In this document: in pieces, positions 5,788-60,814 of the stretch | Numbering within the stretch: the first letter of the stretch is position 1 | Layout: the number at the start of each line of letters is the position of its first letter | Notes under the pieces: model-generated | Database searches by the model: none | What the model saw: only the letters and a program-made list of their open reading frames with translations | What the model was told of the DNA's origin: nothing | Translations under genes and position numbers: made by a program | Source: Escherichia phage EC128 | Reading direction: 5' to 3' (one strand) | Length of the DNA: 64,000 nucleotides | Sequence record: ON210139.1

Positions 5788-5810
5788 GTCTCCTTCGGGA
5801 GACTTTTTTC
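5788..5810 (+). terminator. rho-independent terminator (UUCG tetraloop)
   Basis: GTCTCC-TTCG-GGAGAC followed by TTTTTT. Confidence 0.65.
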
Positions 5811-5819
5811 ATTTTACCG

Positions 5820-5850
5820 GTTTACTTTCCATTTGAGCTGTGATACTATA
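5820..5850 (+). promoter_or_regulatory. early promoter
   Basis: GTTTAC 5820-5825, extended -10 TGTGATACTAT. Confidence 0.5.
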
Positions 5851-6631: not shown

Positions 6632-6661
6632 GTTTACAAGTTGGCAAGGTTATGGTATAGT
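6632..6661 (+). promoter_or_regulatory. early promoter
   Basis: GTTTAC 6632-6637, TATAGT 6656-6661. Confidence 0.55.
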
Positions 6662-6793
6662 AATCTTGTCAACTGCCAAGGAGAAGAGAATGAAAGTTTT
6701 GTTTGTTGTGTATGTGATGATTCAATATAATTACCCAATGTTTACTTATAATCTGGTGAACAACATTATTGATATTATTCAAAGGAGTATGTA

Positions 6794-8045: not shown

Positions 8046-8507
8046 ATGATTATTAATGAAAACTCTTGGCACTATAAATTATTCAAATTGTTTAACGATG
8101 AATGGCAACGACCTAAGACACTATGCGCATATTTTTGGTCTATTGCTATTCCTACATTTTTCGTTTCTATTTTTGGATGTGCTATACTCGTAGGGCTAAC
8201 AATTATTTGCGCAGAAAGCCTACAGCGTTGGCTTATTTTTGGTAGTTTATGGACTTTGCTTCCATCAGCATTTATACTTGCGCTTTTGGTTGTTTTACTT
8301 ATTATCGGTTCATTTGTTATTCCTGCACATTTGCGTGAAAAATATAAAGATTATAAATGGAAAAAGGATTATGCTTTACACGTAGAAAATATTGATAGGG
8401 CGTATAAAGGTTTACCTCCTATTCAACCAAAGAAATCGATTATCGTTGAATTTTTAAAAGCTCGTAAAGCTAAAGTATGTCCTGTTATTGAATATAAGGC
8501 TGAATGA
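8046..8507 (+). CDS. integral membrane protein
   Basis: 153 aa, three hydrophobic segments. Confidence 0.55.
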   Translation: MIINENSWHYKLFKLFNDEWQRPKTLCAYFWSIAIPTFFVSIFGCAILVGLTIICAESLQRWLIFGSLWTLLPSAFILALLVVLLIIGSFVIPAHLREKYKDYKWKKDYALHVENIDRAYKGLPPIQPKKSIIVEFLKARKAKVCPVIEYKAE

Positions 8508-9517
8508 TGAAAACAGTAATGAAAAGTTATTTTGGCAGTCATCTTTATGGAACTTCTACTCCAGAATCTGATGTAGATTTTAAAGAAATCTTTGTTCCTC
8601 CTGCTCGCGATATTCTTATCGGAAGTGTCAAAGAGCACATGAGTAAAAACACTAACAACACATCATCTAAAAACACTAAAGATGATATTGACCATGAACT
8701 ATACAGTCTTAAATATTTCTTTAAATTAGCAGCAGATGGTGAAACTGTAGCATTGGATATGCTTCACACTCCACCTGAACTAGTGGTTAAATCTGATTTG
8801 CCTGATGTGTGGAAGTTTATTCAAGACAACCGTTCTCGTTTTTATACGACTAACATGAAATCATATTTAGGATATGTCCGCAAGCAAGCTTCTAAATACG
8901 GTGTCAAGGGTTCTCGTTTGGCTGCATTACGTGATGTATTGAAAGTAGTTAATCAAATCCCTGAGCAATGGATTGATTACCAAGAAGATGGTTCTATTAA
9001 GCAGCGTCGCACTAAAGTTGAAGATATTAAGCATCGTCTTCCAGAAAACGAATTCTGTGAATGGGTGTTCCATAATCATGAGAAAACAGGCCCACAAACG
9101 TTCTACACTGTGTTGGGTCGTAAATATCAGACAACTCTTTCTCTTATTGAGCTTAAGCAGTCACTGAACAAATTAGATGCTGAATACGGTGAACGTGCTC
9201 GTAAGGCCGAAGCCAATGAAGGTATTGACTGGAAAGCTCTGAGCCATGCCTGCCGTGGTGGACTTCAACTATTGGAAATTTACAAAACTGGCGACTTGAT
9301 TTATCCACTCCAAGATGCTCCATTTATTCTCGACGTGAAGTTGGGTAAACATCCATTTAAAACAGTTCAAGAGTTTTTGGAAGATGTGGTCGATCAAGTA
9401 GAAGCAGCATCTACTGAAGCTTCTAAGAACGGTATGCCTAAAACAGTAGACATGAGTTTCTGGGATGACTTCCTTGAGAAGGTCTATCTTGAAAACCACC
9501 GAAGTTATTATAAATGA
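8504..9517 (+). CDS. nucleotidyltransferase-fold protein
   Basis: Pol-beta-type motif GSHLYGTSTPESDVDF; 337 aa. Confidence 0.55.
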   Translation: MMKTVMKSYFGSHLYGTSTPESDVDFKEIFVPPARDILIGSVKEHMSKNTNNTSSKNTKDDIDHELYSLKYFFKLAADGETVALDMLHTPPELVVKSDLPDVWKFIQDNRSRFYTTNMKSYLGYVRKQASKYGVKGSRLAALRDVLKVVNQIPEQWIDYQEDGSIKQRRTKVEDIKHRLPENEFCEWVFHNHEKTGPQTFYTVLGRKYQTTLSLIELKQSLNKLDAEYGERARKAEANEGIDWKALSHACRGGLQLLEIYKTGDLIYPLQDAPFILDVKLGKHPFKTVQEFLEDVVDQVEAASTEASKNGMPKTVDMSFWDDFLEKVYLENHRSYYK

Positions 9518-9519
9518 TA

Positions 9520-9546
9520 GGGAGCCTTCGGGCTCCCTTTTTTTAT
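9520..9546 (+). terminator. rho-independent terminator (UUCG tetraloop)
   Basis: GGGAGCC-TTCG-GGCTCCC then T-run. Confidence 0.65.
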
Positions 9547-9646
9547 TTCAAAAATTTTTCACAAAACGGTTTACAAGCATAAAGCTTTATGGTACTATAC
9601 AACTATCAACTACTGATACAGATTTGGAGAATAAAATGAAAACTGT
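9543..9646 (+). repeat. promoter-early/stem-loop (PeSL-like) module, copy A
   Basis: includes promoter GTTTAC 9569-9574; 9591-9642 identical to 38255-38306. Confidence 0.6.
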
Positions 9647-10604
9647 AACTATCAATAAGGGTATCTACTTCGGTAAAGAAATCTCTGGAACTTTTGAGCT
9701 CTTAGGTGAATGGTTCCCAGATAATGCTCCGGTAGATGCACAAGGAGATGGTAAAGTTTTTGTTGAAATTGACGGTAAGCGTCGCGGTGTTTGGGTTTAC
9801 AAATCAGACATTTCATATGATGGTGTAAAAGTTGAAGAAGTTAAAGAATCATATGAAGATATGAAAACCCGCATTAATAAAAGATTTAATGTTATGGGAA
9901 TGATGACGAATGGTATTATTAACGGAAACATTCGTTCATTAATTATCTCTGGTGCGGCGGGTATTGGTAAAACGTATTCTTTAGATAAAGCTTTGAATAA
10001 AGCAAATGATAATGGATACATTGAATATAAAAGCATTAACGGTAAAATCTCCGGTATCGGTCTTTATGAACAACTTTGGAATAATCGTGAAGAGAATTCT
10101 GTCCTTTTGATTGATGATGTGGATGTTTTCTCTGATATGGACATTCTTAATCTTCTGAAAGCTGCTCTGGACACTGGAGAGACCCGTAAAGTCTGCTGGA
10201 GCACTGCATCTTCTTACTTAGAAGAAAAAGGCATTGAGCGTGAGTTTGAATTTAAAGGAACGATTGTTTTTATCACAAACGTTGACATTGACCGCGAATT
10301 AGACCGTGGTACTAAACTTGCTCCACATTTACAAGCATTAGTGTCCCGCTCAGTTTATTTAGATTTGGGTGTTCACACTAATGAAGAAATTATGGTCAGG
10401 GTTGAAGATGTTATTCTTTCAACTGACATGATGCAAAAGCGCGGTCTTTCTGATGAAGAAACTTATAAAGCATTATCATGGATGAAAGTCAATGTTAATC
10501 GTTTACGCAATGTTTCACTGCGTACTGCTCTTTATCTTGCTGACTTTATTATGACCGACAAAAACGGTTGGGAAGAAATCGCTGAAACAGTATTATTAAA
10601 ATGA
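9636..10604 (+). CDS. AAA+/P-loop ATPase
   Basis: Walker A SGAAGIGKT, Walker B LLIDDVD; start trimmed to ATG 9636. Confidence 0.65.
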   Translation: MKTVTINKGIYFGKEISGTFELLGEWFPDNAPVDAQGDGKVFVEIDGKRRGVWVYKSDISYDGVKVEEVKESYEDMKTRINKRFNVMGMMTNGIINGNIRSLIISGAAGIGKTYSLDKALNKANDNGYIEYKSINGKISGIGLYEQLWNNREENSVLLIDDVDVFSDMDILNLLKAALDTGETRKVCWSTASSYLEEKGIEREFEFKGTIVFITNVDIDRELDRGTKLAPHLQALVSRSVYLDLGVHTNEEIMVRVEDVILSTDMMQKRGLSDEETYKALSWMKVNVNRLRNVSLRTALYLADFIMTDKNGWEEIAETVLLK

Positions 10605-11320
10605 AAAAATATTTTACTATCTATAAAACTGAAATATTAAATTTAAAGACAGGTATTAAGAAATACTATTATGGTCGACATATAACTAATAATATCAATG
10701 ATTCGTATGTTGGTAGTGGAAATTATATAGAACGTGTAAAAGTGTCAAATGACCACATATTATCAAAAACGGTTTTAGAAGTTTTTGATAATTATGATAA
10801 AATGGTACAAGCTGAAATATTATATATCATGGCAGGTAAATTGAAATATGGGAAAAACTGTGTTAACCTGTCATACGGGGGTGAAGGAGGAAAGGTTGCA
10901 GATGAAACTAGGATAAAATGCAAAAAGCATTCTATAAATTTATGGAAAAATCCTAATCATATACAGCATATGAAGAAAAAGATGAAAGAGGTCACATCCA
11001 CGCCGGAAGCTAAATTAAACACTTCAATAAAAACTTCGCAACGATATAAGGACCCGGTTTTTGTTAGAAAAGTTAGTAATATTATTAAAAAGAAACTAAG
11101 CAATCCTGTAGTAAAAGAAAAGCATATTAATGGAATTAAAGCTGCAAAGCGTTCTCATTTAACTATATGGCAGTATGAAGATGAATTATTCGAGCTCTGG
11201 AAAGAAACTAAATGTGGATGGAGAAAATTTACAAAGGAAGCTATAAAACACGGATATCCAAATGAACCGTATCGTAGTATGGTATCAACTTTTCAGAAAA
11301 GACATTTAGAAGAATCCTAA
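10601..11320 (+). CDS. free-standing GIY-YIG-like homing endonuclease (possibly mobD by position)
   Basis: N-terminal YYYGRH...YVGSG, repeated NUMOD-like motifs; paralog of 21849, 40071, 49456. Confidence 0.6.
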   Translation: MKKYFTIYKTEILNLKTGIKKYYYGRHITNNINDSYVGSGNYIERVKVSNDHILSKTVLEVFDNYDKMVQAEILYIMAGKLKYGKNCVNLSYGGEGGKVADETRIKCKKHSINLWKNPNHIQHMKKKMKEVTSTPEAKLNTSIKTSQRYKDPVFVRKVSNIIKKKLSNPVVKEKHINGIKAAKRSHLTIWQYEDELFELWKETKCGWRKFTKEAIKHGYPNEPYRSMVSTFQKRHLEES

Positions 11321-11402: not shown

Positions 11403-11705
11403 ATGTTATACTCAAAGGCTCGTGAAATTTACGAAACTAAGATTAAAGAAGCTGTATTTCAGTTCGCAACGACAATGCGATGGACAAATGATTGGGAGTA
11501 TTCAAAAAATCATAAGAAGCCCATGGTGACAAGAAAGGCTCATATGTTAGTGTTAATAGACCGTGAGCAGATTAAAGCCCGAGAAGCCCTCCAGAATCAT
11601 AAAAAGGCTGCCTTTGAATGGTTTATGGATAACACTGCTCCTGAGACTAAGAAAGCGGTAAGCGCGTGGTTCAGTGGAAAAAATTGTGAAAGAAGTTTCT
11701 TTTAG
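11403..11705 (+). CDS. hypothetical protein
   Basis: SD GGAGGT then ATG 11403; 100 aa. Confidence 0.5.
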   Translation: MLYSKAREIYETKIKEAVFQFATTMRWTNDWEYSKNHKKPMVTRKAHMLVLIDREQIKAREALQNHKKAAFEWFMDNTAPETKKAVSAWFSGKNCERSFF

Positions 11706-11765
11706 TGGTTTACAAGACCGTTCCTCTGTGGTACTATACAACTATCAACTACGGAGGAACAGAAA
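11703..11765 (+). repeat. PeSL-like module, partial copy
   Basis: GTTTACAAG...GGTACTATACAACTATCAACTAC shared with copies A and B. Confidence 0.45.
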
Positions 11766-12293
11766 ATGAACGCTAAAGATATTTTCAACCTGGTAAATTA
11801 CAACGATGGTAAATTTAAATCAGAAGCACAAAGCAAGTTCTTTAATGACATCTCAATCGGAGGTGAAATCACTGTTAATGGAGGACAAATTTACAAATCC
11901 CGTTGGAATTGGATCGTTATTATCGATGAGATTGGTATTGTAGAAATTTACAAGAATACGAATAAAAATCGTACATTACACTGGTCTCGTGATACTAACG
12001 AACAGTACAAAAAGGATAAAGCATCTAAATTATCTCGTGTAACTCAAGAAGATATTGAGTTCATCAAGAAAGATATTTTAATGTATGATAACTTAATTGC
12101 TGAAGAGCAAGCTGTTATTGATAAATTTGACGAAATTAAAGCTTCTCGTGAAATTCCTGATTTTATGAAAGAATCAGTAAATGAACGATACTCTCTCATT
12201 TCAGAGCGTATTGAAACTTACAAAAAGCAAAGAGCTGAACGCCAAAATACTCTTCGGAAGTTTGAAGAACGGTTAAAGACGGTACTCGCATAA
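11766..12293 (+). CDS. hypothetical protein with C-terminal coiled coil
   Basis: 175-aa ORF. Confidence 0.55.
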   Translation: MNAKDIFNLVNYNDGKFKSEAQSKFFNDISIGGEITVNGGQIYKSRWNWIVIIDEIGIVEIYKNTNKNRTLHWSRDTNEQYKKDKASKLSRVTQEDIEFIKKDILMYDNLIAEEQAVIDKFDEIKASREIPDFMKESVNERYSLISERIETYKKQRAERQNTLRKFEERLKTVLA

Positions 12294-13653: not shown

Positions 13654-14673
13654 ATGAAAACTCGTTCTCAAATTGAAGATATGGTTCGTAATGCCAGTTA
13701 TACTCGTGATGTTATGACATTTTTGTGCCAAAATAATTTAGACCCTGATAAAGTTAATCGTGATATTCACTTTAAATATCTAAATAGCATTGAATTGTTA
13801 CGTCATTTTAGTAAAGCGGGGTATATTACACAAATGACTGCTCGTGAGCAGCTCACCGATTTCTGTAAAACTATTGATTATAAAAATCCTCTATTTGTTC
13901 AAGGCGTTGGTCAGAGTAAGGTCGATTTATCATCTGGATTTTTCAATCCAAATCATTATCGTCTTGAATGGAGATTTATTGCTCTATTCCGTAAACAATT
14001 AAAGCAAATTTTGTCTACTGCTAGTCGATTAAAAGGTTCTGATATTAACTTAAAGAATCTGAAATTTGATGGTTATACTCTTCAAATGGAAGTAAGACCA
14101 TCTAAAGAAAATAATAGAACTGCACGAATTAGCTTTAAGCCTAATACTAAAAATTCTCTTTCAATTTGTGAATGCCTTAAATCGCAGTTGACAGAAGCAT
14201 TTAAGTATATGGATGTTGTTGCTGCTGTTCAATCTAAGATTTTACCTCGTTTTGAGCGAAATTGGGAACATACAACAACATATGAACTTGATATGATCGT
14301 TTCATTTAAATACGATTTTTTGAGAAAGGACGAAGTCCCGCAAGAGAAAAAGCAAGAAGTGCAAGATAACTTAAATTTATCCAATTACTCATCAAACGAT
14401 CCTAAATTTTGGATGTATAGTTCAGGTAATAAAGATGCATGGAAATTCAATAAAGTGAATTTTCTTCCTGTTGAAAATCCGAGTCTTAAACCTGTTGAAA
14501 AATGGCACGCGGATGCGATTGAGAAGTCTATCAAGGCAGTAGATGATGAACTCGTTAAAGCAACTAATGAAGTGTTAGAAGCTGAAAAGATGTTAGAAAA
14601 AGCTCAAGAAAAAGTCAAAAATCTCGCGAAGCAACGTTCTAAACTGAACAATGCACTAAATGCACTAAACTAG
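13654..14673 (+). CDS. coiled-coil protein, paralog 2 of 4
   Basis: 339 aa; shares FR.F.KQ.K.ILS.AS.L motif. Confidence 0.6.
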   Translation: MKTRSQIEDMVRNASYTRDVMTFLCQNNLDPDKVNRDIHFKYLNSIELLRHFSKAGYITQMTAREQLTDFCKTIDYKNPLFVQGVGQSKVDLSSGFFNPNHYRLEWRFIALFRKQLKQILSTASRLKGSDINLKNLKFDGYTLQMEVRPSKENNRTARISFKPNTKNSLSICECLKSQLTEAFKYMDVVAAVQSKILPRFERNWEHTTTYELDMIVSFKYDFLRKDEVPQEKKQEVQDNLNLSNYSSNDPKFWMYSSGNKDAWKFNKVNFLPVENPSLKPVEKWHADAIEKSIKAVDDELVKATNEVLEAEKMLEKAQEKVKNLAKQRSKLNNALNALN

Positions 14674-14702
14674 TTTACTTTGCCACAAGGATGTGGTATA
14701 AT
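14673..14702 (+). promoter_or_regulatory. early promoter
   Basis: GTTTACTTTGCCACAAGGATGTGGTATAAT; near-identical copy at 63742. Confidence 0.6.
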
Positions 14703-23261: not shown

Positions 23262-23477
23262 ATGTATAAATTTCGTAAAGGTTTAGCTGATTTTCTTACA
23301 ACTGTAACATTCTTTCTGTTTATGGCAGTTGGAGCTATTTTCCTTATTCCTTTTATTGCTATATTTTTCGTGATTAGTTTAATTTCTCCAGAAAAGGGCT
23401 TATCTTCTAGTGAGTTCAATGAGCGTCTGGATAAAATTACTAACAAGCTGAATGCGGTTCTTGATAAAAAGGATTAA
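23262..23477 (+). CDS. small membrane protein
   Basis: 71 aa, central hydrophobic segment. Confidence 0.5.
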   Translation: MYKFRKGLADFLTTVTFFLFMAVGAIFLIPFIAIFFVISLISPEKGLSSSEFNERLDKITNKLNAVLDKKD

Positions 23478-23479
23478 TT

Positions 23480-23791
23480 ATGATTAGTTTTGAGCGGTAT
23501 GTAGTAGAGAGTTGGAAGGGTTTTGATATGTTCGGTAATGACTATTATTTTTACGAATGTAGTCTAAATCCTAGTTTTTGGGCTGGACGTGAACGAGATC
23601 TCGAAGAAATTAATGCTCGTGCCGAATTGTTAGGTGAACTGCCTACGGTTTATTTTACCTTTGATGCATCTGGATTTGTTATCCAGGTTTATTTTCCTGA
23701 AGAAAACTCTGGCGAGAATTCTGTTAATCCTCCTTATTGGGCTTACCAAGGAATTATTTCTCGTGGAACAAAACTCGAACTTAAAGAATAA
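23480..23791 (+). CDS. hypothetical protein
   Basis: 103-aa ORF. Confidence 0.5.
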   Translation: MISFERYVVESWKGFDMFGNDYYFYECSLNPSFWAGRERDLEEINARAELLGELPTVYFTFDASGFVIQVYFPEENSGENSVNPPYWAYQGIISRGTKLELKE

Positions 23792-24846: not shown

Positions 24847-25047
24847 ATGAATCCTGAATCTAAATTATCGCAGCGAATTGCTGAAGAACGCGCCAAATTT
24901 TTCCAGAACATGAAACACAATGGTATTGAGGATGAAGTTTTTCTAAATTGGTTCTGGAATAATAAGTATGCAGCATGTGAAGGAGCTTTGTCATTGTCAG
25001 TCGCAATGATGTATGAAGGCTGGAAGGGTGCCAAAAAGTTTAGCTAA
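24847..25047 (+). CDS. hypothetical protein
   Basis: 66-aa ORF, TAAATG junction. Confidence 0.5.
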   Translation: MNPESKLSQRIAEERAKFFQNMKHNGIEDEVFLNWFWNNKYAACEGALSLSVAMMYEGWKGAKKFS

Positions 25048-25065
25048 GGGCTTCGGCCCTTTTTG
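25047..25065 (+). terminator. rho-independent terminator (UUCG tetraloop)
   Basis: GGGC-TTCG-GCCC then TTTTT. Confidence 0.6.
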
Positions 25066-25644: not shown

Positions 25645-25910
25645 AATTTATTAATATTTCTATTACTATTGAAAATTATGGCATTTTCTATGTTGACCAA
25701 TACATGAAAATTTCATTTTTCCCAAATAAGACTGGTGTTGGATATTGGGAAAGTCATGTTTCTGAATTAAATGAAAGTGAATATGCTAGCACACATGAAA
25801 AGTTTTTAGACTTTTTATATCATGCTGATTTAACTAGTCATTATATAGATATTCATGAATTTAAAAAGATGATGGAGAAAGTGTTCCAAGCATACTGTTT
25901 ACTTAGATAA
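25641..25910 (+). CDS. hypothetical protein
   Basis: 89-aa ORF, ATGA overlap. Confidence 0.5.
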   Translation: MKFINISITIENYGIFYVDQYMKISFFPNKTGVGYWESHVSELNESEYASTHEKFLDFLYHADLTSHYIDIHEFKKMMEKVFQAYCLLR

Positions 25911-27484: not shown

Positions 27485-28687
27485 ATGAAAGTATGTATTT
27501 TTATGGCTCGAGGTCTTGAAGGTTGTGGTGTAACTAAATTTTCTCTTGAGCAACGTGATTGGTTTATTAAAAATGGTCATGAAGTAACTTTGGTTTATGC
27601 TAAAGATAAATCATTTACTCGTACAAGTTCTCATGACCACAAATCATTTTCAATTCCAGTTATTTTAGCTAAAGAATACGATAAAGCACTTAAGCTGGTA
27701 AATGATTGTGATATTCTAATTATTAATTCTGTTCCTGCTACTTCCGTTCAAGAAGCCACGATTAATAACTATAAAAAACTTTTAGATAATATTAAACCTT
27801 CTATTCGTGTTGTAGTTTATCAGCATGATCATTCTGTTCTTTCTTTGCGTCGAAATTTGGGATTAGAAGAAACTGTTCGTCGAGCTGATGTTATTTTTAG
27901 CCATTCTGATAATGGTGATTTTAATAAAGTTCTGATGAAAGAATGGTATCCAGAAACTGTTTCTCTGTTTGATGATATTGAAGAAGCACCAACAGTATAT
28001 AACTTTCAGCCTCCTATGGATATTGCGAAGGTTCGGTCAACTTATTGGAAAGATGTTTCTGAAATTAACATGAACATCAACCGTTGGATTGGTCGTACGA
28101 CTACATGGAAAGGTTTTTATCAGATGTTTGATTTTCATGAAAAATTCTTAAAACCTGCTGGTAAATCCACTGTAATGGAAGGTCTTGAACGTTCCCCTGC
28201 TTTTATTGCAATTAAGGAAAAAGGTATTCCGTATGAATATTATGGTAATCGTGAGATTGATAAAATGAATCTCACGCCGAATCAACCGGCACAAATCCTA
28301 GATTGTTATATTAATAGTGAAATGCTTGAACGAATGAGTAAATCTGGCTTTGGATATCAGTTGAGTAAACTTAACCAGAAATACTTACAACGCTCACTCG
28401 AATATACTCATCTTGAATTAGGTGCTTGCGGTACAATTCCTGTTTTCTGGAAATCAACGGGTGATAATTTAAAATTCCGTGTTGATAATACTCCTTTGAC
28501 CTCACATGATAGCGGTATCATTTGGTTTGATGAAAATGACATGGAATCAACATTCGAGCGTATTAAAGAATTGTCATCTGACCGAGCTCTTTATGACCGT
28601 GAGCGAGAAAAAGCATATGAATTTTTGTATCAGCACCAAGATTCAAGCTTCTGTTTTAAAGAACAGTTTGACATTATTACAAAATAA
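27485..28687 (+). CDS. a-gt: DNA alpha-glucosyltransferase
   Basis: 400 aa; N-terminus IFMARGLEGCGVTKF. Confidence 0.9.
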   Translation: MKVCIFMARGLEGCGVTKFSLEQRDWFIKNGHEVTLVYAKDKSFTRTSSHDHKSFSIPVILAKEYDKALKLVNDCDILIINSVPATSVQEATINNYKKLLDNIKPSIRVVVYQHDHSVLSLRRNLGLEETVRRADVIFSHSDNGDFNKVLMKEWYPETVSLFDDIEEAPTVYNFQPPMDIAKVRSTYWKDVSEINMNINRWIGRTTTWKGFYQMFDFHEKFLKPAGKSTVMEGLERSPAFIAIKEKGIPYEYYGNREIDKMNLTPNQPAQILDCYINSEMLERMSKSGFGYQLSKLNQKYLQRSLEYTHLELGACGTIPVFWKSTGDNLKFRVDNTPLTSHDSGIIWFDENDMESTFERIKELSSDRALYDREREKAYEFLYQHQDSSFCFKEQFDIITK

Positions 28688-28688
28688 A

Positions 28689-28703
28689 GGGCTTCGGCCC
28701 TTT
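28689..28703 (+). terminator. UUCG-tetraloop terminator/stability hairpin
   Basis: GGGC-TTCG-GCCC then TTT. Confidence 0.55.
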
Positions 28704-32707: not shown

Positions 32708-33394
32708 ATGAAACTGTCTAAAGATACTACTGCTCTGCTTAAAAATTTCGCTACTATTAACTCCGGTATTATGCTTAAATCCGGTCAATTTATTATGACT
32801 CGCGCAGTTAATGGTACAACTTATGCAGAAGCAAATATTTCTGACGTTATTGATTTTGATGTAGCGATTTACGATTTGAACGGTTTTCTCGGTATTCTGT
32901 CTCTAGTTAATGATGATGCAGAAATTTCCCAGTCAGAAGATGGAAATATTAAAATTGCTGATGCTCGTTCAACAATTTTTTGGCCAGCAGCCGATCCGAG
33001 TACAGTAGTTGCTCCTAATAAACCAATTCCATTCCCGGTAGCATCTGTTGTTACTGAAATTAAAGCTGAAGACCTTCAACAACTGTTGCGTGTATCTCGC
33101 GGTCTGCAGATTGATACAATTGCTATCACAGTAAAAGAAGGTAAAATCGTAATTAACGGTTTTAATAAAGTAGAAGATTCTGCTTTGACCCGTGTTAAAT
33201 ATTCTTTGACTCTTGGTGATTATGATGGTGAAAATACATTTAATTTCATTATCAATATGGCAAATATGAAAATGCAACCAGGAAATTATAAACTTCTGCT
33301 CTGGGCAAAAGGTAAACAAGGTGCTGCTAAATTTGAAGGTGAACACGCGAATTATGTAGTAGCTCTTGAAGCTGATTCTACCCACGACTTTTAA
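32708..33394 (+). CDS. 45: sliding clamp gp45
   Basis: 228 aa; heads the 45-44-62-regA-43 array. Confidence 0.9.
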   Translation: MKLSKDTTALLKNFATINSGIMLKSGQFIMTRAVNGTTYAEANISDVIDFDVAIYDLNGFLGILSLVNDDAEISQSEDGNIKIADARSTIFWPAADPSTVVAPNKPIPFPVASVVTEIKAEDLQQLLRVSRGLQIDTIAITVKEGKIVINGFNKVEDSALTRVKYSLTLGDYDGENTFNFIINMANMKMQPGNYKLLLWAKGKQGAAKFEGEHANYVVALEADSTHDF

Positions 33395-33398
33395 TAAA

Positions 33399-33413
33399 GG
33401 GCTTCGGCCCTTT
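33399..33413 (+). terminator. UUCG-tetraloop terminator/stability hairpin
   Basis: GGGC-TTCG-GCCC then TTT. Confidence 0.55.
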
Positions 33414-34971: not shown

Positions 34972-35340
34972 ATGATTGAAATTACTCTTAAAAAACCTGA
35001 AGATTTTCTGAAAGTAAAAGAAACTTTGACTCGTATGGGAATTGCTAATAATAAAGATAAAGTTCTGTATCAGTCCTGTCATATTCTTCAGAAAAAAGGA
35101 CTATATTATATCGTTCATTTTAAAGAAATGCTTCGTATGGATGGTCGCCAAGTTGAAATGACAGAAGAAGATGAAGTTCGTCGTGATTCGATTGCATGGC
35201 TGTTAGAAGATTGGGGACTGATTGAAATCGTTCCTGGTCAAAGAACTTTTATGAAAGATTTAACTAATAACTTCCGAGTTATTTCTTTTAAACAAAAACA
35301 TGAATGGAAACTCGTTCCTAAATATACGATTGGTAATTAA
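34972..35340 (+). CDS. regA: translational repressor RegA
   Basis: 122 aa, between 62 and 43. Confidence 0.85.
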   Translation: MIEITLKKPEDFLKVKETLTRMGIANNKDKVLYQSCHILQKKGLYYIVHFKEMLRMDGRQVEMTEEDEVRRDSIAWLLEDWGLIEIVPGQRTFMKDLTNNFRVISFKQKHEWKLVPKYTIGN

Positions 35341-35344
35341 GCAA

Positions 35345-35364
35345 GGGGCTTCGGCCCCTTATTT
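35345..35364 (+). terminator. UUCG-tetraloop terminator/stability hairpin
   Basis: GGGGC-TTCG-GCCCC then TTATTT. Confidence 0.6.
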
Positions 35365-35418: not shown

Positions 35419-38115
35419 ATGAAAGAATTTTATATCTCTATTGAAACAGTCGGAAATAACATCGTTGAACGTTATATTGATGAAAACGGAAAGGAACGTA
35501 CTCGTGAAGTAGAATATCTTCCGACTATGTTTAGGCATTGTAAGGAAGAGTCAAAGTACAAAGACATCTATGGTAAAAATTGCGCTCCTCAAAAATTTCC
35601 ATCAATGAAAGATGCTCGAGATTGGATGAAGCGAATGGAAGACATCGGTCTCGAAGCTCTCGGTATGAACGATTTTAAACTCGCTTATATCAGTGATACA
35701 TATGGTTCAGAAATTGTTTATGACCGAAAATTTGTTCGTGTAGCTAACTGTGACATTGAGGTTACTGGTGATAAATTTCCTGACCCAATGAAAGCTGAAT
35801 ATGAAATTGATGCTATCACTCATTATGATTCAATTGACGATCGTTTTTACGTCTTTGATTTGTTGAATTCAATGTACGGTTCAGTATCAAAATGGGATGC
35901 AAAGTTAGCTGCTAAGCTTGACTGTGAAGGTGGTGATGAAGTTCCTCAAGAAATTCTTGACCGAGTAATTTATATGCCATTTGATAATGAGCGTGATATG
36001 CTCATGGAATATATCAATCTTTGGGAACAGAAACGACCTGCTATTTTTACTGGTTGGAATATTGAGGGATTTGACGTTCCGTATATCATGAATCGCGTTA
36101 AAATGGTTCTCGGTGAACGCAGTATGAAACGTTTCTCTCCAATCGGTCGAGTAAAATCTAAACTAATTCAAAATGTGTACGGTAGCAAAGAAATTTATTC
36201 TATTGATGGCGTATCTATTCTTGATTATTTAGATTTGTATAAGAAATTCGCATTTACTAATTTGCCGTCATTCTCTTTGGAATCAGTTGCTCAACATGAA
36301 ACCAAAAAAGGTAAATTACCATACGACGGTCCTATTAATAAACTTCGTGAGACTAATCATCAACGATACATTAGTTATAACATCATTGACGTAGAATCAG
36401 TTCAAGCAATTGATAAAATTCGCGGGTTTATCGATCTAGTTTTAAGTATGTCTTATTACGCTAAAATGCCTTTTTCTGGTGTAATGAGTCCTATTAAAAC
36501 TTGGGATGCTATTATTTTTAACTCATTGAAAGGTGAACACAAGGTTATTCCTCAACAAGGTTCGCACGTTAAACAAAGTTTTCCGGGTGCATTTGTGTTT
36601 GAACCTAAGCCAATTGCTCGTCGATATATTATGAGTTTTGACTTGACGTCTCTGTATCCGAGTATTATTCGTCAGGTTAACATTAGTCCTGAGACTATTC
36701 GTGGGCAGTTTAAAGTTCATCCAATTCATGAATATATCGCAGGAACAGCTCCTAAACCGAGTGATGAATATTCTTGTTCTCCGAATGGATGGATGTATGA
36801 TAAGCATCAAGAAGGTATCATTCCAAAGGAAATCGCTAAAGTATTTTTCCAGCGTAAAGATTGGAAAAAGAAAATGTTCGCTGAAGAAATGAATGCCGAA
36901 GCTATTAAAAAGATTATTATGAAAGGCGCAGGGTCTTGTTCAACTAAACCAGAAGTTGAACGATATGTTAAGTTCAGTGATGATTTCTTAAATGAACTAT
37001 CGAATTATACTGAATCTGTTCTCAATAGTCTGATTGAGGAATGTGAAAAAGCAGCTACACTTGCTAATACAAATCAGCTGAACCGTAAAATTCTCATTAA
37101 CAGTCTTTATGGTGCTCTTGGTAATATTCATTTCCGTTACTATGATTTGCGAAATGCTACTGCTATCACAATTTTCGGCCAAGTTGGTATTCAGTGGATT
37201 GCTCGTAAAATTAATGAATATCTGAATAAAGTATGCGGAACTAATGATGAAGATTTCATCGCAGCAGGTGATACTGATTCGGTATATGTTTGCGTAGATA
37301 AAGTTATTGAAAAAGTTGGTCTTGACCGATTCAAAGAGCAGAACGATTTAGTTGAATTCATGAATCAGTTCGGTAAGAAAAAGATGGAACCTATGATTGA
37401 TGTTGCATATCGTGAGTTATGTGATTATATGAATAACCGCGAGCATCTGATGCATATGGACCGTGAAGCTATTTCTTGCCCTCCACTTGGTTCAAAGGGC
37501 GTTGGTGGATTTTGGAAAGCGAAAAAGCGTTATGCTCTGAACGTTTATGATATGGAAGATAAACGATTTGCTGAACCGCATCTAAAAATCATGGGTATGG
37601 AAACTCAACAGAGTTCAACACCAAAAGCAGTGCAAGAAGCTCTCGAAGAAAGTATTCGTCGTATTCTTCAGGAAGGTGAAGAGTCTGTCAAAGAATACTA
37701 CAAGAACTTCGAGAAAGAATATCGTCAACTTGACTATAAAGTTATTGCTGAAGTAAAAACTGCGAACGATATAGCAAAATATGATGATAAAGGTTGGCCA
37801 GGATTTAAATGTCCGTTCCATATTCGCGGTGTGCTAACTTATCGTCGAGCTGTTAGTGGTCTGGGTGTAGCTCCAATTTTGGATGGAAATAAAGTAATGG
37901 TTCTTCCATTGCGTGAAGGAAATCCATTTGGTGACAAGTGCATTGCTTGGCCGTCGGGCACAGAACTTCCAAAAGAAATTCGTTCTGATGTACTGTCTTG
38001 GATTGACTACTCAACTTTGTTCCAAAAATCGTTTGTTAAACCGCTTGCGGGTATGTGTGAATCGGCTGGTATGGACTATGAAGAAAAAGCTTCGTTAGAC
38101 TTCCTGTTTGGCTGA
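35419..38115 (+). CDS. 43: DNA polymerase gp43 (family B)
   Basis: 898 aa; exonuclease FDIE and polymerase YGDTDS motifs. Confidence 0.95.
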   Translation: MKEFYISIETVGNNIVERYIDENGKERTREVEYLPTMFRHCKEESKYKDIYGKNCAPQKFPSMKDARDWMKRMEDIGLEALGMNDFKLAYISDTYGSEIVYDRKFVRVANCDIEVTGDKFPDPMKAEYEIDAITHYDSIDDRFYVFDLLNSMYGSVSKWDAKLAAKLDCEGGDEVPQEILDRVIYMPFDNERDMLMEYINLWEQKRPAIFTGWNIEGFDVPYIMNRVKMVLGERSMKRFSPIGRVKSKLIQNVYGSKEIYSIDGVSILDYLDLYKKFAFTNLPSFSLESVAQHETKKGKLPYDGPINKLRETNHQRYISYNIIDVESVQAIDKIRGFIDLVLSMSYYAKMPFSGVMSPIKTWDAIIFNSLKGEHKVIPQQGSHVKQSFPGAFVFEPKPIARRYIMSFDLTSLYPSIIRQVNISPETIRGQFKVHPIHEYIAGTAPKPSDEYSCSPNGWMYDKHQEGIIPKEIAKVFFQRKDWKKKMFAEEMNAEAIKKIIMKGAGSCSTKPEVERYVKFSDDFLNELSNYTESVLNSLIEECEKAATLANTNQLNRKILINSLYGALGNIHFRYYDLRNATAITIFGQVGIQWIARKINEYLNKVCGTNDEDFIAAGDTDSVYVCVDKVIEKVGLDRFKEQNDLVEFMNQFGKKKMEPMIDVAYRELCDYMNNREHLMHMDREAISCPPLGSKGVGGFWKAKKRYALNVYDMEDKRFAEPHLKIMGMETQQSSTPKAVQEALEESIRRILQEGEESVKEYYKNFEKEYRQLDYKVIAEVKTANDIAKYDDKGWPGFKCPFHIRGVLTYRRAVSGLGVAPILDGNKVMVLPLREGNPFGDKCIAWPSGTELPKEIRSDVLSWIDYSTLFQKSFVKPLAGMCESAGMDYEEKASLDFLFG

Positions 38116-38128
38116 TAGAATAAATCTA

Positions 38129-38149
38129 GGGACCTCCAGGTCCCTTTTT
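38129..38149 (+). terminator. rho-independent terminator
   Basis: GGGACC-TCCA-GGTCCC then TTTTT. Confidence 0.65.
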
Positions 38150-38206
38150 CATACAAGTAATATAAATCTATACTTAGGAAAAATAGATGATTCTAGGTCC
38201 TGTAAA

Positions 38207-38310
38207 TTCATTAAAAATTTTTTCACAAAACTGTTTACAAGACTGTTCTTCCATGGTACTATACAACTATCAACTACTGATACAGATTTGGAGAATAAAA
38301 TGAAAATTGT
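38207..38310 (+). repeat. PeSL-like module, copy B
   Basis: GTTTAC 38233-38238; 38255-38306 identical to 9591-9642. Confidence 0.6.
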
Positions 38311-38536
38311 TATGGGGTGCTTAGCAGTTTGTTTAGTTGCATTAGCAGCAGTTCCATTTGTTAGTGTTGAAAATGATACTCAACCTGTGATTGAATCTAG
38401 CACCGTTATTCACACTAATGGTAAAATATCAGTTAAAATTGATGATAATCTTCATGTGAATACTAATGGAACGCTGGGTGTTCAATTAGGTAATATCTGT
38501 GTAAGCACTACTGGAGTAATTACTACTTGTATTTGA
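38300..38536 (+). CDS. small secreted/membrane protein
   Basis: 78 aa from ATG 38300, hydrophobic N-terminus. Confidence 0.5.
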   Translation: MKIVMGCLAVCLVALAAVPFVSVENDTQPVIESSTVIHTNGKISVKIDDNLHVNTNGTLGVQLGNICVSTTGVITTCI

Positions 38537-38546
38537 GGAAATTATT

Positions 38547-38927
38547 ATGAAAATCGCTATTTTGGTTATTGCATTAGGTCTTACTGGTTGTGTAGCTCAA
38601 GGACCGGTAGTAAATCAGTCTGATGTAGGAAAAATTGTAAACTGTTCAAGCAAATTTTATAATCCTAATGTCAAGTGTTATAAAGAAGCTCCAAAACAGA
38701 CAGTAGAACAAATGCAGGCGAATTTTGACGAGGCTATTCGTCCAGATGAATCTGCTCAAGCATATCGTAATTCGGATGTAATTACACGCGAAGAAAAAAT
38801 TGAAAACTACTGTGCAGAACTTTGGGCAAATTGGGCTAATAATTACCAATGGCGTACAGGTAAAAATGCTCCGATGGAGTATGTAGTGAATTCTTATAAT
38901 TCATGTGTAAAAAATTTGACTAAGTGA
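38547..38927 (+). CDS. putative lipoprotein
   Basis: signal peptide with lipobox LTGC. Confidence 0.55.
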   Translation: MKIAILVIALGLTGCVAQGPVVNQSDVGKIVNCSSKFYNPNVKCYKEAPKQTVEQMQANFDEAIRPDESAQAYRNSDVITREEKIENYCAELWANWANNYQWRTGKNAPMEYVVNSYNSCVKNLTK

Positions 38928-43156: not shown

Positions 43157-44584
43157 GTGGTAGAAATTATTCTTTCTCATCTTATATTTGATCAAGCTTA
43201 TTTTTCAAAAGTTTGGCCATATATGGATTCAGAATATTTTGAAAGTGGTCCAGCTAAAAATACATTCAAATTAATTAAATCTCATGTCAATGAGTATCAT
43301 AGCGTTCCATCTATTAATGCGTTAAATGTTGCATTAGAAAATAGTTCATTTACTGAAACAGAATATTCTGGTGTAAAAACACTTATTTCAAAACTAGCTG
43401 ATTCTCCGGAAGACCACAGCTGGTTAGTAAAAGAAACAGAAAAATATGTTCAGCAAAGGGCGATGTTTAATGCTACGTCTAAAATAATCGAAATTCAAAC
43501 TAATGCTGAGCTTCCTCCGGAAAAACGAAATAAGAAAATGCCAGATGTAGGTGCTATTCCTGACATCATGCGCCAAGCATTATCAATTTCATTTGATAGT
43601 TACGTTGGTCATGATTGGATGGATGACTACGAAGCACGCTGGCTATCTTATATGAATAAAGCTCGTAAAGTTCCGTTTAAACTCAGAATTCTAAACAAAA
43701 TTACGAAAGGCGGAGCTGAAACTGGAACACTGAACGTTTTAATGGCTGGCGTTAACGTTGGTAAGTCATTAGGTCTGTGTTCATTGGCAGCAGATTATTT
43801 GCAGCTCGGACATAATGTTCTTTACATTTCCATGGAAATGGCAGAAGAAGTCTGTGCTAAGCGTATTGATGCTAATATGCTTGATGTTTCTCTTGATGAC
43901 ATTGATGATGGGCATATTTCTTACGCTGAGTATAAAGGAAAAATGGAAAAATGGCGTGAGAAATCTACTCTCGGTCGTTTAATCGTTAAACAGTATCCTA
44001 CTGGTGGAGCAGATGCTAATACATTTCGGTCGCTTTTAAATGAATTAAAGCTCAAGAAGAATTTTGTTCCAACAATCATTATTGTTGACTATCTAGGTAT
44101 TTGTAAATCTTGCCGCATTAGAGTTTATTCAGAAAATAGTTACACAACTGTTAAAGCCATCGCAGAAGAATTGCGTGCTCTGGCTGTTGAAACTGAAACT
44201 GTTCTTTGGACTGCAGCACAGGTTGGTAAACAGGCTTGGGATTCTTCTGATGTTAACATGAGCGATATTGCAGAATCTGCTGGTCTTCCAGCAACAGCTG
44301 ATTTTATGCTTGCGGTCATTGAAACCGAGGAGTTAGCAGCTGCTGAACAACAACTCATTAAGCAAATCAAATCACGATATGGTGATAAGAATAAGTGGAA
44401 TAAGTTTTTGATGGGTGTTCAAAAGGGAAATCAGAAATGGGTAGAAATTGAACAAGATTCTACTCCAACTGAAGTGAACGAAGTAGCAGGTTCACAACAG
44501 ATTCAGGCTGAGCAGAATCGCTATCAAAGAAATGAATCCACTCGAGCTCAGTTAGATGCTTTGGCGAATGAATTAAAATTTTAG
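43157..44584 (+). CDS. 41: replicative helicase gp41 (DnaB-like)
   Basis: 475 aa, Walker A GVNVGKS, GTG start. Confidence 0.95.
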   Translation: MVEIILSHLIFDQAYFSKVWPYMDSEYFESGPAKNTFKLIKSHVNEYHSVPSINALNVALENSSFTETEYSGVKTLISKLADSPEDHSWLVKETEKYVQQRAMFNATSKIIEIQTNAELPPEKRNKKMPDVGAIPDIMRQALSISFDSYVGHDWMDDYEARWLSYMNKARKVPFKLRILNKITKGGAETGTLNVLMAGVNVGKSLGLCSLAADYLQLGHNVLYISMEMAEEVCAKRIDANMLDVSLDDIDDGHISYAEYKGKMEKWREKSTLGRLIVKQYPTGGADANTFRSLLNELKLKKNFVPTIIIVDYLGICKSCRIRVYSENSYTTVKAIAEELRALAVETETVLWTAAQVGKQAWDSSDVNMSDIAESAGLPATADFMLAVIETEELAAAEQQLIKQIKSRYGDKNKWNKFLMGVQKGNQKWVEIEQDSTPTEVNEVAGSQQIQAEQNRYQRNESTRAQLDALANELKF

Positions 44585-44613
44585 TTTACAAGCTGACGAG
44601 ACTATGGTATAGT
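44584..44613 (+). promoter_or_regulatory. early promoter with inverted repeat
   Basis: GTTTAC 44584-44589, TATAGT -10 flanked by AGACTA/TAGTCT. Confidence 0.55.
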
Positions 44614-44642
44614 AGTCTTGTTGGTTAAATGAGGAGATTGTT

Positions 44643-47458: not shown

Positions 47459-47493
47459 ATGTCCTCCTTTAAATTAATATTTATCATAAATTT

Positions 47494-47523
47494 GTTTACT
47501 TTCTCAGCTTGTTATGGTATTAT
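47494..47523 (+). promoter_or_regulatory. early promoter
   Basis: GTTTAC 47494-47499, TGGTATTAT -10. Confidence 0.55.
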
Positions 47524-47548
47524 AAAATAAATTGCTGAGGATGATATA

Positions 47549-48888
<1,340 letters not shown>

Positions 48889-50415: not shown

Positions 50416-50439
50416 GGACTCCTTCGGGAGTCCTTTTTC
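50416..50439 (+). terminator. rho-independent terminator (UUCG tetraloop)
   Basis: GGACTCC-TTCG-GGAGTCC then TTTTTC. Confidence 0.7.
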
Positions 50440-50448
50440 ATTTAAATG

Positions 50449-50478
50449 GTTTACTTTCCAAAATGAGTATGGTATAAT
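50449..50478 (+). promoter_or_regulatory. early promoter
   Basis: GTTTAC 50449-50454, TGGTATAAT -10. Confidence 0.6.
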
Positions 50479-58700: not shown

Positions 58701-59189
58701 ATGATTATTAATATTGGTGAAATTGCTCGTGTGTCTGATAAATCCCGTTCTAAAGCAGCAGGAAAATTGGTCGAAATTGTAAGCATTCAGCTTAAACACG
58801 GCGTTAAAGATGAAGATTCTGAAGTAAAAGTGCGTATCATTCCTAAAGATGGAAAGTCTAAACCTCAGTTTGGTTATGTTCGCGCGAAATTTCTTGAATC
58901 TGCGTTTTTGAAAGCTGTTCCCGCTAAAGGAATTGAAACGATTGATACTTCGCATGTAGGTGTAGACTTTAAGTGGAAACTCGGTCAAGCTATCAAGTTC
59001 ATTGCTCCTTGTGAATTTAAATTTATCAAAGATGATGGAAAGGCTGTTTATACTCGTGCTATGTGTGGATACATTACCGATCAATGGGTAGAAGATGGTG
59101 TTAAGCTGTACAATGTGGTATTTTTAGGAACATACAAAGTCATTCCTGAAAGTTGGATTAAACACTATAGCAATGCTCTCTATGCATAA
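58701..59189 (+). CDS. hypothetical protein, possibly MotB
   Basis: 162 aa; shares CGYITDQWVEDGVKLYNVV with 58082 ORF. Confidence 0.5.
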   Translation: MIINIGEIARVSDKSRSKAAGKLVEIVSIQLKHGVKDEDSEVKVRIIPKDGKSKPQFGYVRAKFLESAFLKAVPAKGIETIDTSHVGVDFKWKLGQAIKFIAPCEFKFIKDDGKAVYTRAMCGYITDQWVEDGVKLYNVVFLGTYKVIPESWIKHYSNALYA

Positions 59190-59197
59190 AGTTTAAA

Positions 59198-59295
59198 TTT
59201 TTTCATAAAACTATATACATCAGTAGTTGATTATGGTACTATATCAATATCAACTACTGATACAGAAAACAACTTGGAGAATAAAATGGAAATTC
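59198..59295 (+). repeat. degenerate PeSL-like module with 4-codon remnant ORF
   Basis: TGGTACTATA...CAACTACTGATACAGA...TTGGAGAATAAAATGGAAATTCGCTAA. Confidence 0.45.
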
Positions 59296-59359
59296 GCTAA
59301 AGGTGCTGATACTCTTCTGAAACGCATCGCTCCAATGTTTAATTAATGAGGAAATTGTA

Positions 59360-59575
59360 ATGAAACGTAAAATTGTTCAGAACTGCACTAATGATGAATT
59401 TGAAGATGTATTATTTGATCCAAATTTGGTAGTAGTTCAAAAGGAACATACTAGCAAGTTTACTCACTTGACTTCTGTTTATGTGTATGAGAAAGTCGGT
59501 GATAAACAGCCAATTTACGGTGTATTTCGTGAAATTACTGAAGACGGCACAACTTACTGGAAGGAAATTTATTAA
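59360..59575 (+). CDS. hypothetical protein
   Basis: 71-aa ORF with SD GAGGAAATTGTAATG. Confidence 0.5.
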
Positions 59576-59996: not shown

Positions 59997-60173
59997 ATGC
60001 CGCTTTATGATTATAAATGTCAATCCAAAGACTGCGCAAAAGAATACGAAAAAATCAAGAAAATTTCTGAAAGGGATACTGATGTATGTCCTGATTGTCA
60101 TCGGATTGCTATTCGGTTAGTTTCCGCTCCTAAGCATGTGAATGGTGGATTTTACGACTTACTTAAAGGGTGA
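59997..60173 (+). CDS. FmdB-like zinc-ribbon protein (58 aa)
   Basis: YDYKC...C...CPDC, hand-translated. Confidence 0.4.
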   Translation: MPLYDYKCQSKDCAKEYEKIKKISERDTDVCPDCHRIAIRLVSAPKHVNGGFYDLLKG

Positions 60174-60175
60174 TT

Positions 60176-60547: not shown

Positions 60548-60813
60548 AAATTATGAAATATGTTAATCGTTCTATCGCAGCATTAGTATTAGCAGTATCT
60601 TTAGTAGGATGTACTGATGCTGATAATGCAACTAAAATTTTATCATCAAGTGGTTTTACTAATATTGAAATCACTGGATATAACTGGTTCGGTTGCTCTG
60701 AAAATGATTTCCAACATACTGGATTTCGTGCTATTGGACCTACTGGGCAGAAAGTAGAAGGAACAGTATGTTCTGGTCTATTCTTCAAGGATTCGACTAT
60801 TCGTTTTAAATAA
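60544..60813 (+). CDS. putative lipoprotein
   Basis: signal peptide with lipobox LVGC. Confidence 0.5.
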   Translation: MKIMKYVNRSIAALVLAVSLVGCTDADNATKILSSSGFTNIEITGYNWFGCSENDFQHTGFRAIGPTGQKVEGTVCSGLFFKDSTIRFK

Positions 60814-60814
60814 A

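Follow-up and report, generated by a model that had tools for sequence, protein, structure and literature searches.

How does one and the same early expression signal come to stand, letter for letter, before two different genes at distant loci of a T4-like phage genome, and what does such a repeat mean for the genes around it? Here, we address this question in 64,000 nt of Escherichia phage EC128 (record ON210139.1, one strand, 34% G+C), the whole stretch of DNA analysed and hereafter referred to as the window. The window is a segment of a Tequatrovirus (T4-like) genome with 97-98% identity to RB32, T6 and T4-like Tequatrovirus genomes. It runs in reverse to the T4 map, roughly from vs.7/vs.8 to rIIA.1, with the early genes on the + strand, and gene names were transferred from RB32, T4T and AR1. 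An earlier note on this DNA had pointed to two identical promoter-early/stem-loop cassettes, accompanied by a partial and a decayed copy, and had proposed recombination-mediated shuffling of gene cassettes. Based on our analysis, the four copies very probably all belong to one family of immediate-early cassettes for gene expression in T4-type phages, known from the literature as PeSL (promoter-early stem-loop) elements, with a role in the exchange of ORFs.

The identity between the two main copies had been placed at 9591-9642 and 38255-38306, over 52 bp; the identity is real, and its full length is 54 bp, from 9589 to 9642 and from 38253 to 38306 (ATGGTACTATACAACTATCAACTACTGATACAGATTTGGAGAATAAAATGAAAA). 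This match ranks first among the exact direct repeats of the 64-kb window, with runners-up of 24, 22 and 20 bp. It begins just 5' of the -10 element, past locus-specific spacers, and stops at base 8 of both coding sequences. Each copy leads into a different ORF (nrdC.10 and a 78-aa ORF), as the earlier note had stated. The same upstream motif reported there, GTTTACAAG, lies 5' of both copies at 9569-9577 and 38233-38241, and the A/T-rich upstream region together with the -35 element is identical at 27 of 28 positions, with an unrelated 11-nt spacer stretch ahead of the -10 (CATAAAGCTTT vs ACTGTTCTTCC). A 23-nt core, GGTACTATACAACTATCAACTAC, occurs four times in the window at up to 3 mismatches and was absent from all of 100 dinucleotide-preserving shuffles. 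All four copies are intergenic and on the early (+) strand, between nrdC.11 and nrdC.10 (copy 1), gene 43 and the 78-aa ORF (copy 2), nrdC.9 and nrdC.8 (copy 3) and motB and cef (copy 4), and the genes that they would drive are nrdC.10, the 78-aa ORF after gene 43, nrdC.8 and a remnant before cef, respectively. The features are as follows.

8504-9517, + strand: nrdC.11 ORF, upstream neighbour of copy 1
9519-9545, + strand: copy 1, terminator-like hairpin AGGGAGCC-TTCG-GGCTCCCT (hairpin 9519-9538) and T-run, from the terminator scan
9546-9575, + strand: copy 1, A/T-rich UP-like region AAAAATTTTTCACAAAACG and -35 G-TTTACA (9570-9575)
9589-9642, + strand: copy 1, exact 54-bp repeat, with TGn and -10 TACTAT at 9593-9598
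9636-10604, + strand: nrdC.10 (RB32 annotation), 322 aa, P-loop NTPase-like, driven by copy 1
11708-11768, + strand: copy 3, promoter only, with GTTTACA, spacer AAGACCGTTCCTCTG and TGG-TACTAT (11732-11737)
35419-38115, + strand: gene 43, DNA polymerase (stop at 38115), upstream neighbour of copy 2
38128-38150, + strand: copy 2, terminator-like hairpin AGGGACC-TCCA-GGTCCCT (hairpin 38128-38145) and T-run, after the gene 43 stop
38209-38239, + strand: copy 2, UP-like A/T-rich region and -35 G-TTTACA (38234-38239)
38253-38306, + strand: copy 2, exact 54-bp repeat, with TGn and -10 at 38257-38262
38300-38536, + strand: 78-aa ORF with hydrophobic N-terminus, phrog_4189, driven by copy 2
38547-38927, + strand: imm.1, downstream of the 78-aa ORF and followed by imm
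59214-59300, + strand: copy 4, decayed, between motB (58701-59189) and cef (59360-59575)

Copies 1 and 2 share a complete anatomy. The hairpin of copy 1 (8 pairs, 6 of them G-C) stands directly 3' of the nrdC.11 stop codon, and the promoter follows 31 nt downstream of it; at copy 2 the corresponding distance is 88 nt. Within the repeat, the predicted start (A 9605; 38269 in copy 2) is followed by the leader, GGAG (9626-9629; 38290-38293) and the start codon (ATG 9636, in ATGAAAA; ATG 38300). The leader of both copies spans 31 nt from the predicted start, with GGAG 6 nt before ATG. The nrdC.10 product has weak AAA/STAND Pfam matches and belongs to phrog_1250. The 78-aa ORF is found in 325 of about 520 Tequatrovirus relatives; T4 and PST are without it and RB27 has an unrelated ORF instead.

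In copies 1-3, TTTACA and TACTAT are 17 nt apart and combined with a TG extended -10 (9570-9598, 38234-38262 and 11709-11737), in agreement with the T4 PeSL consensus, from which copy 4 deviates by TATACA for TTTACA. Copies 1, 2 and 4 have the A/T-rich tract AAAAATTTTTCACAAAAC 5' of the -35; in copy 3 the tract at this position is looser. An identical promoter (-35 GTTTACA, -10 TACTAT) was annotated by the depositors of X75802, from the ndd region of T4, as a feature ending 7 nt after the -10; by homology to it, transcription starts are predicted at 9605, 11744, 38269 and 59249. From literature and homology, we infer promoter and terminator activity for the cassettes. The leader RNA folds no better than shuffled sequence (z-scores -0.5 to +1.5) and is predicted to be unstructured, and among Rfam families nothing matched it near gathering scores. 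A 5'-terminal mRNA-protecting hairpin, UAUCA-ACUAC-UGAUA, was rejected as a candidate, its fold being at the shuffled level and its loop being lost in a common 3-nt deletion. A structured cis-regulatory leader of any Rfam family was likewise dismissed, given neither fold signal nor covariance-model match.

The partial copy reported near 11703-11765 and the decayed one with its 4-codon remnant were both recovered. Copy 3 lies just 3' of the nrdC.9 ORF end (11705), carries GTTTACAAG at 11708 and has an exact 24-mer (11729-11752) in common with copies 1 and 2. Its Shine-Dalgarno differs: the leader is of type B (see below), with GGAGG at 11753-11757 and the ATG of nrdC.8 at 11766. Copy 4 combines a degenerate -35, TATACA (59214-59219), with -10 TACTAT (59237-59242) and a leader with an extra AAAACAAC insert, followed by GGAG (59276-59279) and ATG (59286), where the remnant ORF of four codons begins (ATG GAA ATT CGC TAA, MEIR*, 59286-59300). 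No stem-loop was found upstream of either copy in the terminator scan, and because of this copies 3 and 4 are only half PeSLs. The designation as promoter-early/stem-loop cassettes fits copies 1 and 2, where hairpins (9519-9538 and 38128-38145) precede the promoters; of the full layout, copies 3 and 4 lack the stem-loop.

The + strand of the window holds 16 early promoter/leader cassettes, all having GTTTAC, TGn and a GAGGAG-type Shine-Dalgarno in common. In the 54-nt register their mean pairwise identity is 42.5% (sd 10.8%, 120 pairs). As the second-best pair reaches only 70%, the 100% identity of the focal pair is far above what a shared promoter consensus provides. In other phages, the nrdC.10 copy is identical over 72/72 positions in approximately 34 of 511 records, including PST, RB3-RB10, RB27 and HY01, and identical gene-43 copies are found in PTE-Eco15 and AR1. 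Each copy is therefore present at its own locus in independently sequenced genomes, contrary to the assembly artefact that the earlier note had considered.

The copies belong to a larger family. In T4T, the -10-plus-leader core stands before imm.1, nrdC.10, ndd.6, e.8, cef, motA, nrdC.8, ndd.4 and frd.3, the sequence common to family members being TGGTACTATACAACTATCAAC. Around it, the members are mosaics of a handful of blocks. The spacer is AAGCATAAAGCTTTA at nrdC.10 and frd.3, AAGACTGTTCTTCC at the gene-43 site and ndd.4, and ATCCCTGTTCTTCC at e.8. The type-A leader block reads TACTGATAC(A/G)GATTTGGAGAATAAAATG, with a variant carrying the AAAACAAC insert at e.8 and cef, and the type-B block, TACGGAGGAACA.AAAATG, is found at nrdC.8 and ndd.4. 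The T4 ndd.6 cassette additionally holds ATGAAAATCGCT, which corresponds to codons 1-4 of imm.1, and a stop codon then overlaps with the start of ndd.6.

If such cassettes take part in gene exchange, their boundaries are expected to coincide with gene gain and loss in related phages. They do so at three of the four copies, the sites compared being gene 43/imm.1, nrdC.11/nrdC.10 and motB/cef, and strict conservation of the flanking genes, which would have spoken against shuffling, is not what the relatives display: ORF content varies at all three sites. Between gene 43 and imm.1, three states occur, namely no ORF, the 78-aa ORF and an unrelated 83-aa ORF. In T4 and PST the cassette drives imm.1 directly; in the window, AR1 and PTE-Eco15 a type-A leader and the 78-aa ORF are present; and in RB27 the same promoter continues through CAACTAC and then into a type-B leader and the 83-aa ORF. 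The 5' breakpoint thus falls inside the cassette, after CAACTAC. Both ORF-bearing states rejoin at GAGGAAATTATT-ATG of imm.1, and the T4 junction lies in ATGAAAAT microhomology.

Between nrdC.11 and nrdC.10, relatives form a nested series of 0, 1, 2 and 3 extra ORFs, with further promoter cassettes between the ORFs. The three-ORF state came from an exact-pattern scan of IMG/VR for the core, which gave 12 loci in 5 phages: the metagenomic T4-like contig L014 has promoter a, ORF49 and ORF87, promoter b, ORF66, promoter c and nrdC.10, in this order. KMB22 has ORF66 alone, behind a hybrid a/b cassette with the crossover in CTATCAAAACAAA, matching an a-by-b deletion. In NIC06P2, ORF49 and ORF87 are the only extra ORFs; its cassette is a b/c hybrid with the crossover in GGAGA, matching a b-by-c deletion. 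The window and T4 have no extra ORF at this site. Such a series would be expected from exchanges between neighbouring cassettes. At motB/cef, AR1 has an 89-aa ORF (AR1_010) behind the cassette, of which the window and T4 keep the first codons and the last 18 codons, with an internal deletion of approximately 212 bp; the 4-codon remnant of copy 4 is this internally deleted ORF. From these comparisons, the direction of change, insertion or deletion, cannot be inferred.

All cargo ORFs belong to PHROG families of unknown function, one of them being DUF4031. Mobility of cargo between loci was considered and rejected: each of the 325 records has a single 78-aa ORF, and the positions agree with one and the same locus. 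For the other cargo ORFs, matches were seen only at the same site among the loci compared, and none behind a different cassette. Between the window and T4, there are 14 indel or replacement gaps. Because only about 2-3 of these 14 adjoin an early promoter, we make no claim that indels are enriched at cassettes. The gaps in question are the 78-aa ORF (38314-38546), a 536-bp block from the promoter at 47495 and perhaps one more. Several other gaps involve homing-endonuclease genes (a seg-like ORF at 10601-11320 and differences in mobB, mobC and mobD), and the remaining ones are without a nearby promoter. The cassettes are, thus, one contributor among several to the differences between the window and T4, as was likewise concluded for PeSLs by Comeau et al. 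2014 (PMC4122927).

Exchange between distant cassettes is a separate matter. The nrdC.10 leader of the window is a variant with TAC retained and an A (+TAC, A), found in approximately 7% of database relatives (the approximately 34 of 511 records above). Most relatives, including T4, have a 3-nt deletion and a G (delta-TAC, G). Both haplotypes occur at both the nrdC.10 and the gene-43 sites, in different phages; at the latter, delta-TAC/G is seen in PST and +TAC/A in the window, AR1 and PTE. This haplotype argument is weakened by the position of delta-TAC within an ACTACT repeat, where slippage could generate it more than once. Further, the gene-43 spacer is of the nrdC.8 type in SfPhi01 and of the e.8 type in PST, CJY920 and e11/2, and the RB27 gene-43 site has an nrdC.8-type leader. 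From locus to locus and from phage to phage, a given promoter spacer is not tied to a given leader half. For multi-nucleotide blocks that different loci share in different combinations, the best explanation is ectopic recombination in which the crossovers fall in the common core.

Strict concerted evolution was not supported as an explanation, as the nrdC.10 and gene-43 copies differ at 1-5 positions in PST, T4, e11/2, SfPhi01 and CJY920. Other phages with the window-type nrdC.10 leader have a gene-43 copy of their own that differs by 1-2 nt, and among the nine genomes compared at both loci, perfect identity is confined to the window. General homogenisation of the cassettes within genomes is thus absent. 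Copies 1 and 2 lie 28,664 bp apart in direct orientation. Because the essential genes 43, 44, 45, 46, 47 and 55 lie between them, a crossover of copy 1 with copy 2 would be lethal and viable excision would be impossible; therefore, only non-crossover patches or exchanges with co-infecting genomes would be viable. Their identity would accordingly stem from shared ancestry or from an exchanged patch; the two copies are not the two ends of one cassette. The 54-bp identity is most likely a recent patch, one combination among many.

The sequence anatomy of the cassettes, their mosaicism and their coincidence with indels in relatives point to recombination at these elements, and with breakpoints inside cassettes at three sites the shuffling proposed in the earlier note is supported. 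For recombination and its mechanism, we infer the following course. Where present, the hairpin would keep transcription from upstream out of the downstream gene. Via the UP-like region, GTTTACA, the 17-nt spacer with TGn and TACTAT, the cassette would recruit host sigma-70 RNA polymerase in its unmodified form, and transcription would begin approximately 7 nt past the -10. The short, unstructured, A/U-rich leader would provide the GGAG ribosome-binding site 6 nt before ATG. As the cassette brings promoter and leader, any ORF following it would be switched on as soon as infection begins. The example of T4 motA makes GGAG also a likely site of cleavage by RegB, for the later shut-off of the message. 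At the same time, the common blocks of 20-70 bp may serve as portable homology for the very active recombination system of the phage: through exchanges in the interval from -10 to ATG, ORFs downstream of a cassette would be lost, gained or substituted, and patches could also pass between cassettes at distant loci.

Several other readings of the repeats have to be weighed. Chance similarity or an assembly artefact has a vanishingly small probability, considering the absence of the core from the shuffles, an exact 54-bp match in 64 kb of 34% G+C and the recovery of each copy from its corresponding locus in many phages sequenced independently of one another. More can be said for selection only, where purifying selection for an optimal early promoter and translation start would maintain the sequence, with no recombination role and with nearby indels being coincidental. 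T4 early promoters do have a consensus beyond the canonical elements (PMC2988021), the 16 cassettes of the window agree in GTTTAC, TGn and the Shine-Dalgarno type, an unstructured leader is expected for efficient initiation, and the 78-aa ORF keeps to one locus. We nevertheless regard this reading as improbable: other functional cassettes are approximately 42% identical, so function does not need this particular sequence, and orthologous leaders tolerate the 3-nt deletion and base changes. Point-wise selection, moreover, cannot yield multi-nucleotide blocks recombined among loci, and at three sites the breakpoints of gain, loss and replacement fall inside the cassette. Possible, although unlikely as the source of the identity, is a common operator, with a single trans-acting factor (RegB with ribosomal protein S1, or a translational repressor) keeping the leader and co-regulating nrdC.10, the 78-aa ORF and others. 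GGAG lies inside the Shine-Dalgarno of all type-A leaders, and the family also includes the leader of T4 motA, with a Shine-Dalgarno that RegB cleaves (PMC2988021). However, GGAG is found in most early leaders whatever the rest of their sequence, which leaves the 54-bp identity unexplained, the leader is without RNA structure and Rfam match, and its part from the start to the Shine-Dalgarno varies among orthologues (delta-TAC, A/G, AAAACAAC insert). A common operator may hold alongside a role in recombination.

Alternatively, the cassettes could be recognition sites of a dedicated site-specific recombinase or nuclease, similar to integron attC/attI, and not passive homology. Arbiol et al. (PMC2839356) raise this possibility for a GGGG...CCCC stem-loop, and the crossovers do cluster in the narrow zone from the -10 to the ATG. 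The crossover points, however, differ from case to case (CAACTAC, CTATCAAAACAAA, GGAGA, ATGAAAAT) and always lie in available microhomology, as homology-driven exchange predicts; copies 3 and 4 have no stem-loop, and an integrase-like gene was not seen adjoining any of the four copies. We consider a dedicated system very improbable. Only slightly better are the chances of a broader proposal, quite improbable in our judgement, in which the block from the -10 to the ATG is recognised by a phage factor, be it a DNA nuclease or recombinase or else RegB, S1 or another RNA regulator, with integron-like gene capture, or, in a weaker version, undergoes long-range ectopic gene conversion. If true, the recognition-site version would make the cassettes an actively targeted gene-capture system in T-even phages, and the weaker one would make a single recombining population of cassettes that lie tens of kilobases from each other. 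The reading that we prefer is still that of T4-type early cassettes acting as shared homology.

On this reading, the cassettes help to explain the reshuffling of the many small early genes of unknown function in T4-like phages, which probably serve host takeover and counter-defence. With a ready promoter, ribosome-binding site and terminator, a captured ORF would be expressed at once with its neighbours undisturbed, and the repeated sequence would offer the recombination machinery a place to cut and paste.

Among known systems, integron cassettes are similar in that small promoter-proximal ORFs are exchanged at repeated boundary sequences, and circular intermediates have been reported for PeSLs (PMC2839356). 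They differ in that no integrase is found here and that promoter, terminator and ribosome-binding site are all part of the boundary element. Homologous recombination is favoured over site-specific recombination, because the crossover points vary and follow microhomology. With the RegB-sensitive early mRNAs of T4, the cassettes share GGAG in the Shine-Dalgarno, 6 nt before ATG, and the first approximately 28 transcribed nucleotides of the motA leader are common to the cassette family. By this analogy the leaders here would be cleaved by RegB; a published RegB cleavage test of the nrdC.10 or 78-aa ORF leaders was not found. T4 early promoters, with their UP/-35/TGn/-10 architecture, were described together with the RegB cut in the motA Shine-Dalgarno by Hinton 2010 (PMC2988021). 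All four recognition elements are present in the cassettes, and orthologues stand before T4 nrdC.10, imm.1, nrdC.8 and cef. There is no difference in kind; the gene-43 promoter here drives a 78-aa ORF missing from T4, and the nrdC.10 leader is of the +TAC/A variant.

The closest counterpart is the PeSL itself, for which the definition, promoter and terminator assays, and mini-circles in RB49 and phi1 were presented by Arbiol 2010 (PMC2839356), and which was described in PST and T4 as TTTACW-N17-TAYWAT with Shine-Dalgarno and ATG at the 3' end by Comeau, Arbiol and Krisch 2014 (PMC4122927). The present elements have A/T-rich region, sigma-70-like promoter, Shine-Dalgarno and start codon in this order, headed at copies 1 and 2 by the stem-loop, and the TTTACA-17-TACTAT of copies 1-3 fits the T4/PST consensus. 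They occur in multiple copies in early variable regions, where closely related phages differ by inserted, deleted or replaced ORFs, with crossovers between the -10 and the ATG. The cassettes in the ndd.4/.5 exchange between T4 and PST of the 2014 paper are, in addition, of the same sequence family. Differences are that copies 3 and 4 lack the stem-loop, for which the published term is 1/2 or degraded PeSLs, and that the pair separated by 28.7 kb across essential genes suggests, by sequence comparison alone, long-range patch exchange and not the local mini-circle route of those papers. The type of element and its proposed role are, thus, already known for T4 and PST, and no new principle is involved. 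What is added here are clean examples: downstream of the DNA polymerase gene, a site with three alleles; ahead of nrdC.10, a nested series of 0, 1, 2 or 3 ORFs, the crossovers of which were narrowed to 5-13 nt; and, for distant cassettes, evidence of an exchange of spacer and leader blocks.

Besides the focal pair, the two 54-bp identical cassette copies before nrdC.10 and after gene 43, the window holds three more pairs of near-identical early promoter cassettes at distant loci, and the focal pair is thus not the sole sub-family. The genes behind these three additional pairs were named through coordinate mapping onto T4:

14671-14702 and 63740-63771, cassette pair ahead of the equivalents of nrdC.4 and rIIA.1, identity 31/32
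5790-5831 and 50419-50460, cassette pair ahead of the equivalents of mobD.5 and mrh.2, identity 88% over the terminator plus the -35
6632-6669 and 44584-44621, cassette pair ahead of the equivalents of mobD.2 and dmd, identity 84%

The replication-gene region also repeats a family of terminator hairpins that are nearly identical to one another (AAAGGGCTTCGGCCCTTT, loop TTCG), and one pair of these hairpins has a 22-bp exact match in common. Like the promoters, these terminators may serve as homology patches:

28680-28703, 33390-33413, 25039-25062, 35337-35360 and 60807-60830, AAAGGGCTTCGGCCCTTT hairpins

Several blocks of the window are missing in T4, wholly or for the most part, including the following:

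47549-48109, + strand, 186-aa ORF directly 5' of dam (whole region with its promoter, 47476-48109)
10601-11320, + strand, 239-aa seg-like homing-endonuclease ORF (intron-like, site-specific) between nrdC.10 and nrdC.9
60170-60547, + strand, 125-aa ORF between the 39.2 and 39.1 equivalents
23463-23786 and 25656-25908, insertions relative to T4 in the nrdH/55.8 and 55/55.1 regions

The 186-aa ORF is preceded by an early-type promoter, with GTTTAC at 47494 and TATTAT at 47518-47523, and in T4 this promoter and most of the ORF are absent through a 536-bp deletion, the breakpoints of which lie outside any cassette. The Pfam match of the ORF to the restriction endonuclease DpnII is weak and sub-threshold (16.8 bits for a cutoff of 23, E 0.0045); the ORF belongs to phrog_8706, a PHROG family of unknown function, and had no sequence match in PDB. 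GATC is both the site cut by DpnII and the site methylated by Dam, and the ORF may be the remnant of a restriction-modification pair.

The seg-like ORF is carried by RB32, T6 and others, and is the main reason why only 64 of the 744 records in the database comparison showed full coverage. For the blocks at 60170-60547, 23463-23786 and 25656-25908, comparison with T4 revealed no early promoter at the borders.

Within the T4 genome itself (T4T), we compared the promoters of frd.3 (~146866) and nrdC.10 (55349). They agree in terminator tail, A/T-rich tract, -35 and -10 and over the full length of the spacer AAGCATAAAGCTTTAT, and part in the leader, after the -10. The cassette upstream of T4 ndd.6 (167079-167007) contains an 8-codon mini-ORF, MKIAEIEL*, which starts with the first four codons of imm.1 and whose stop codon overlaps the ndd.6 start (ATGA).
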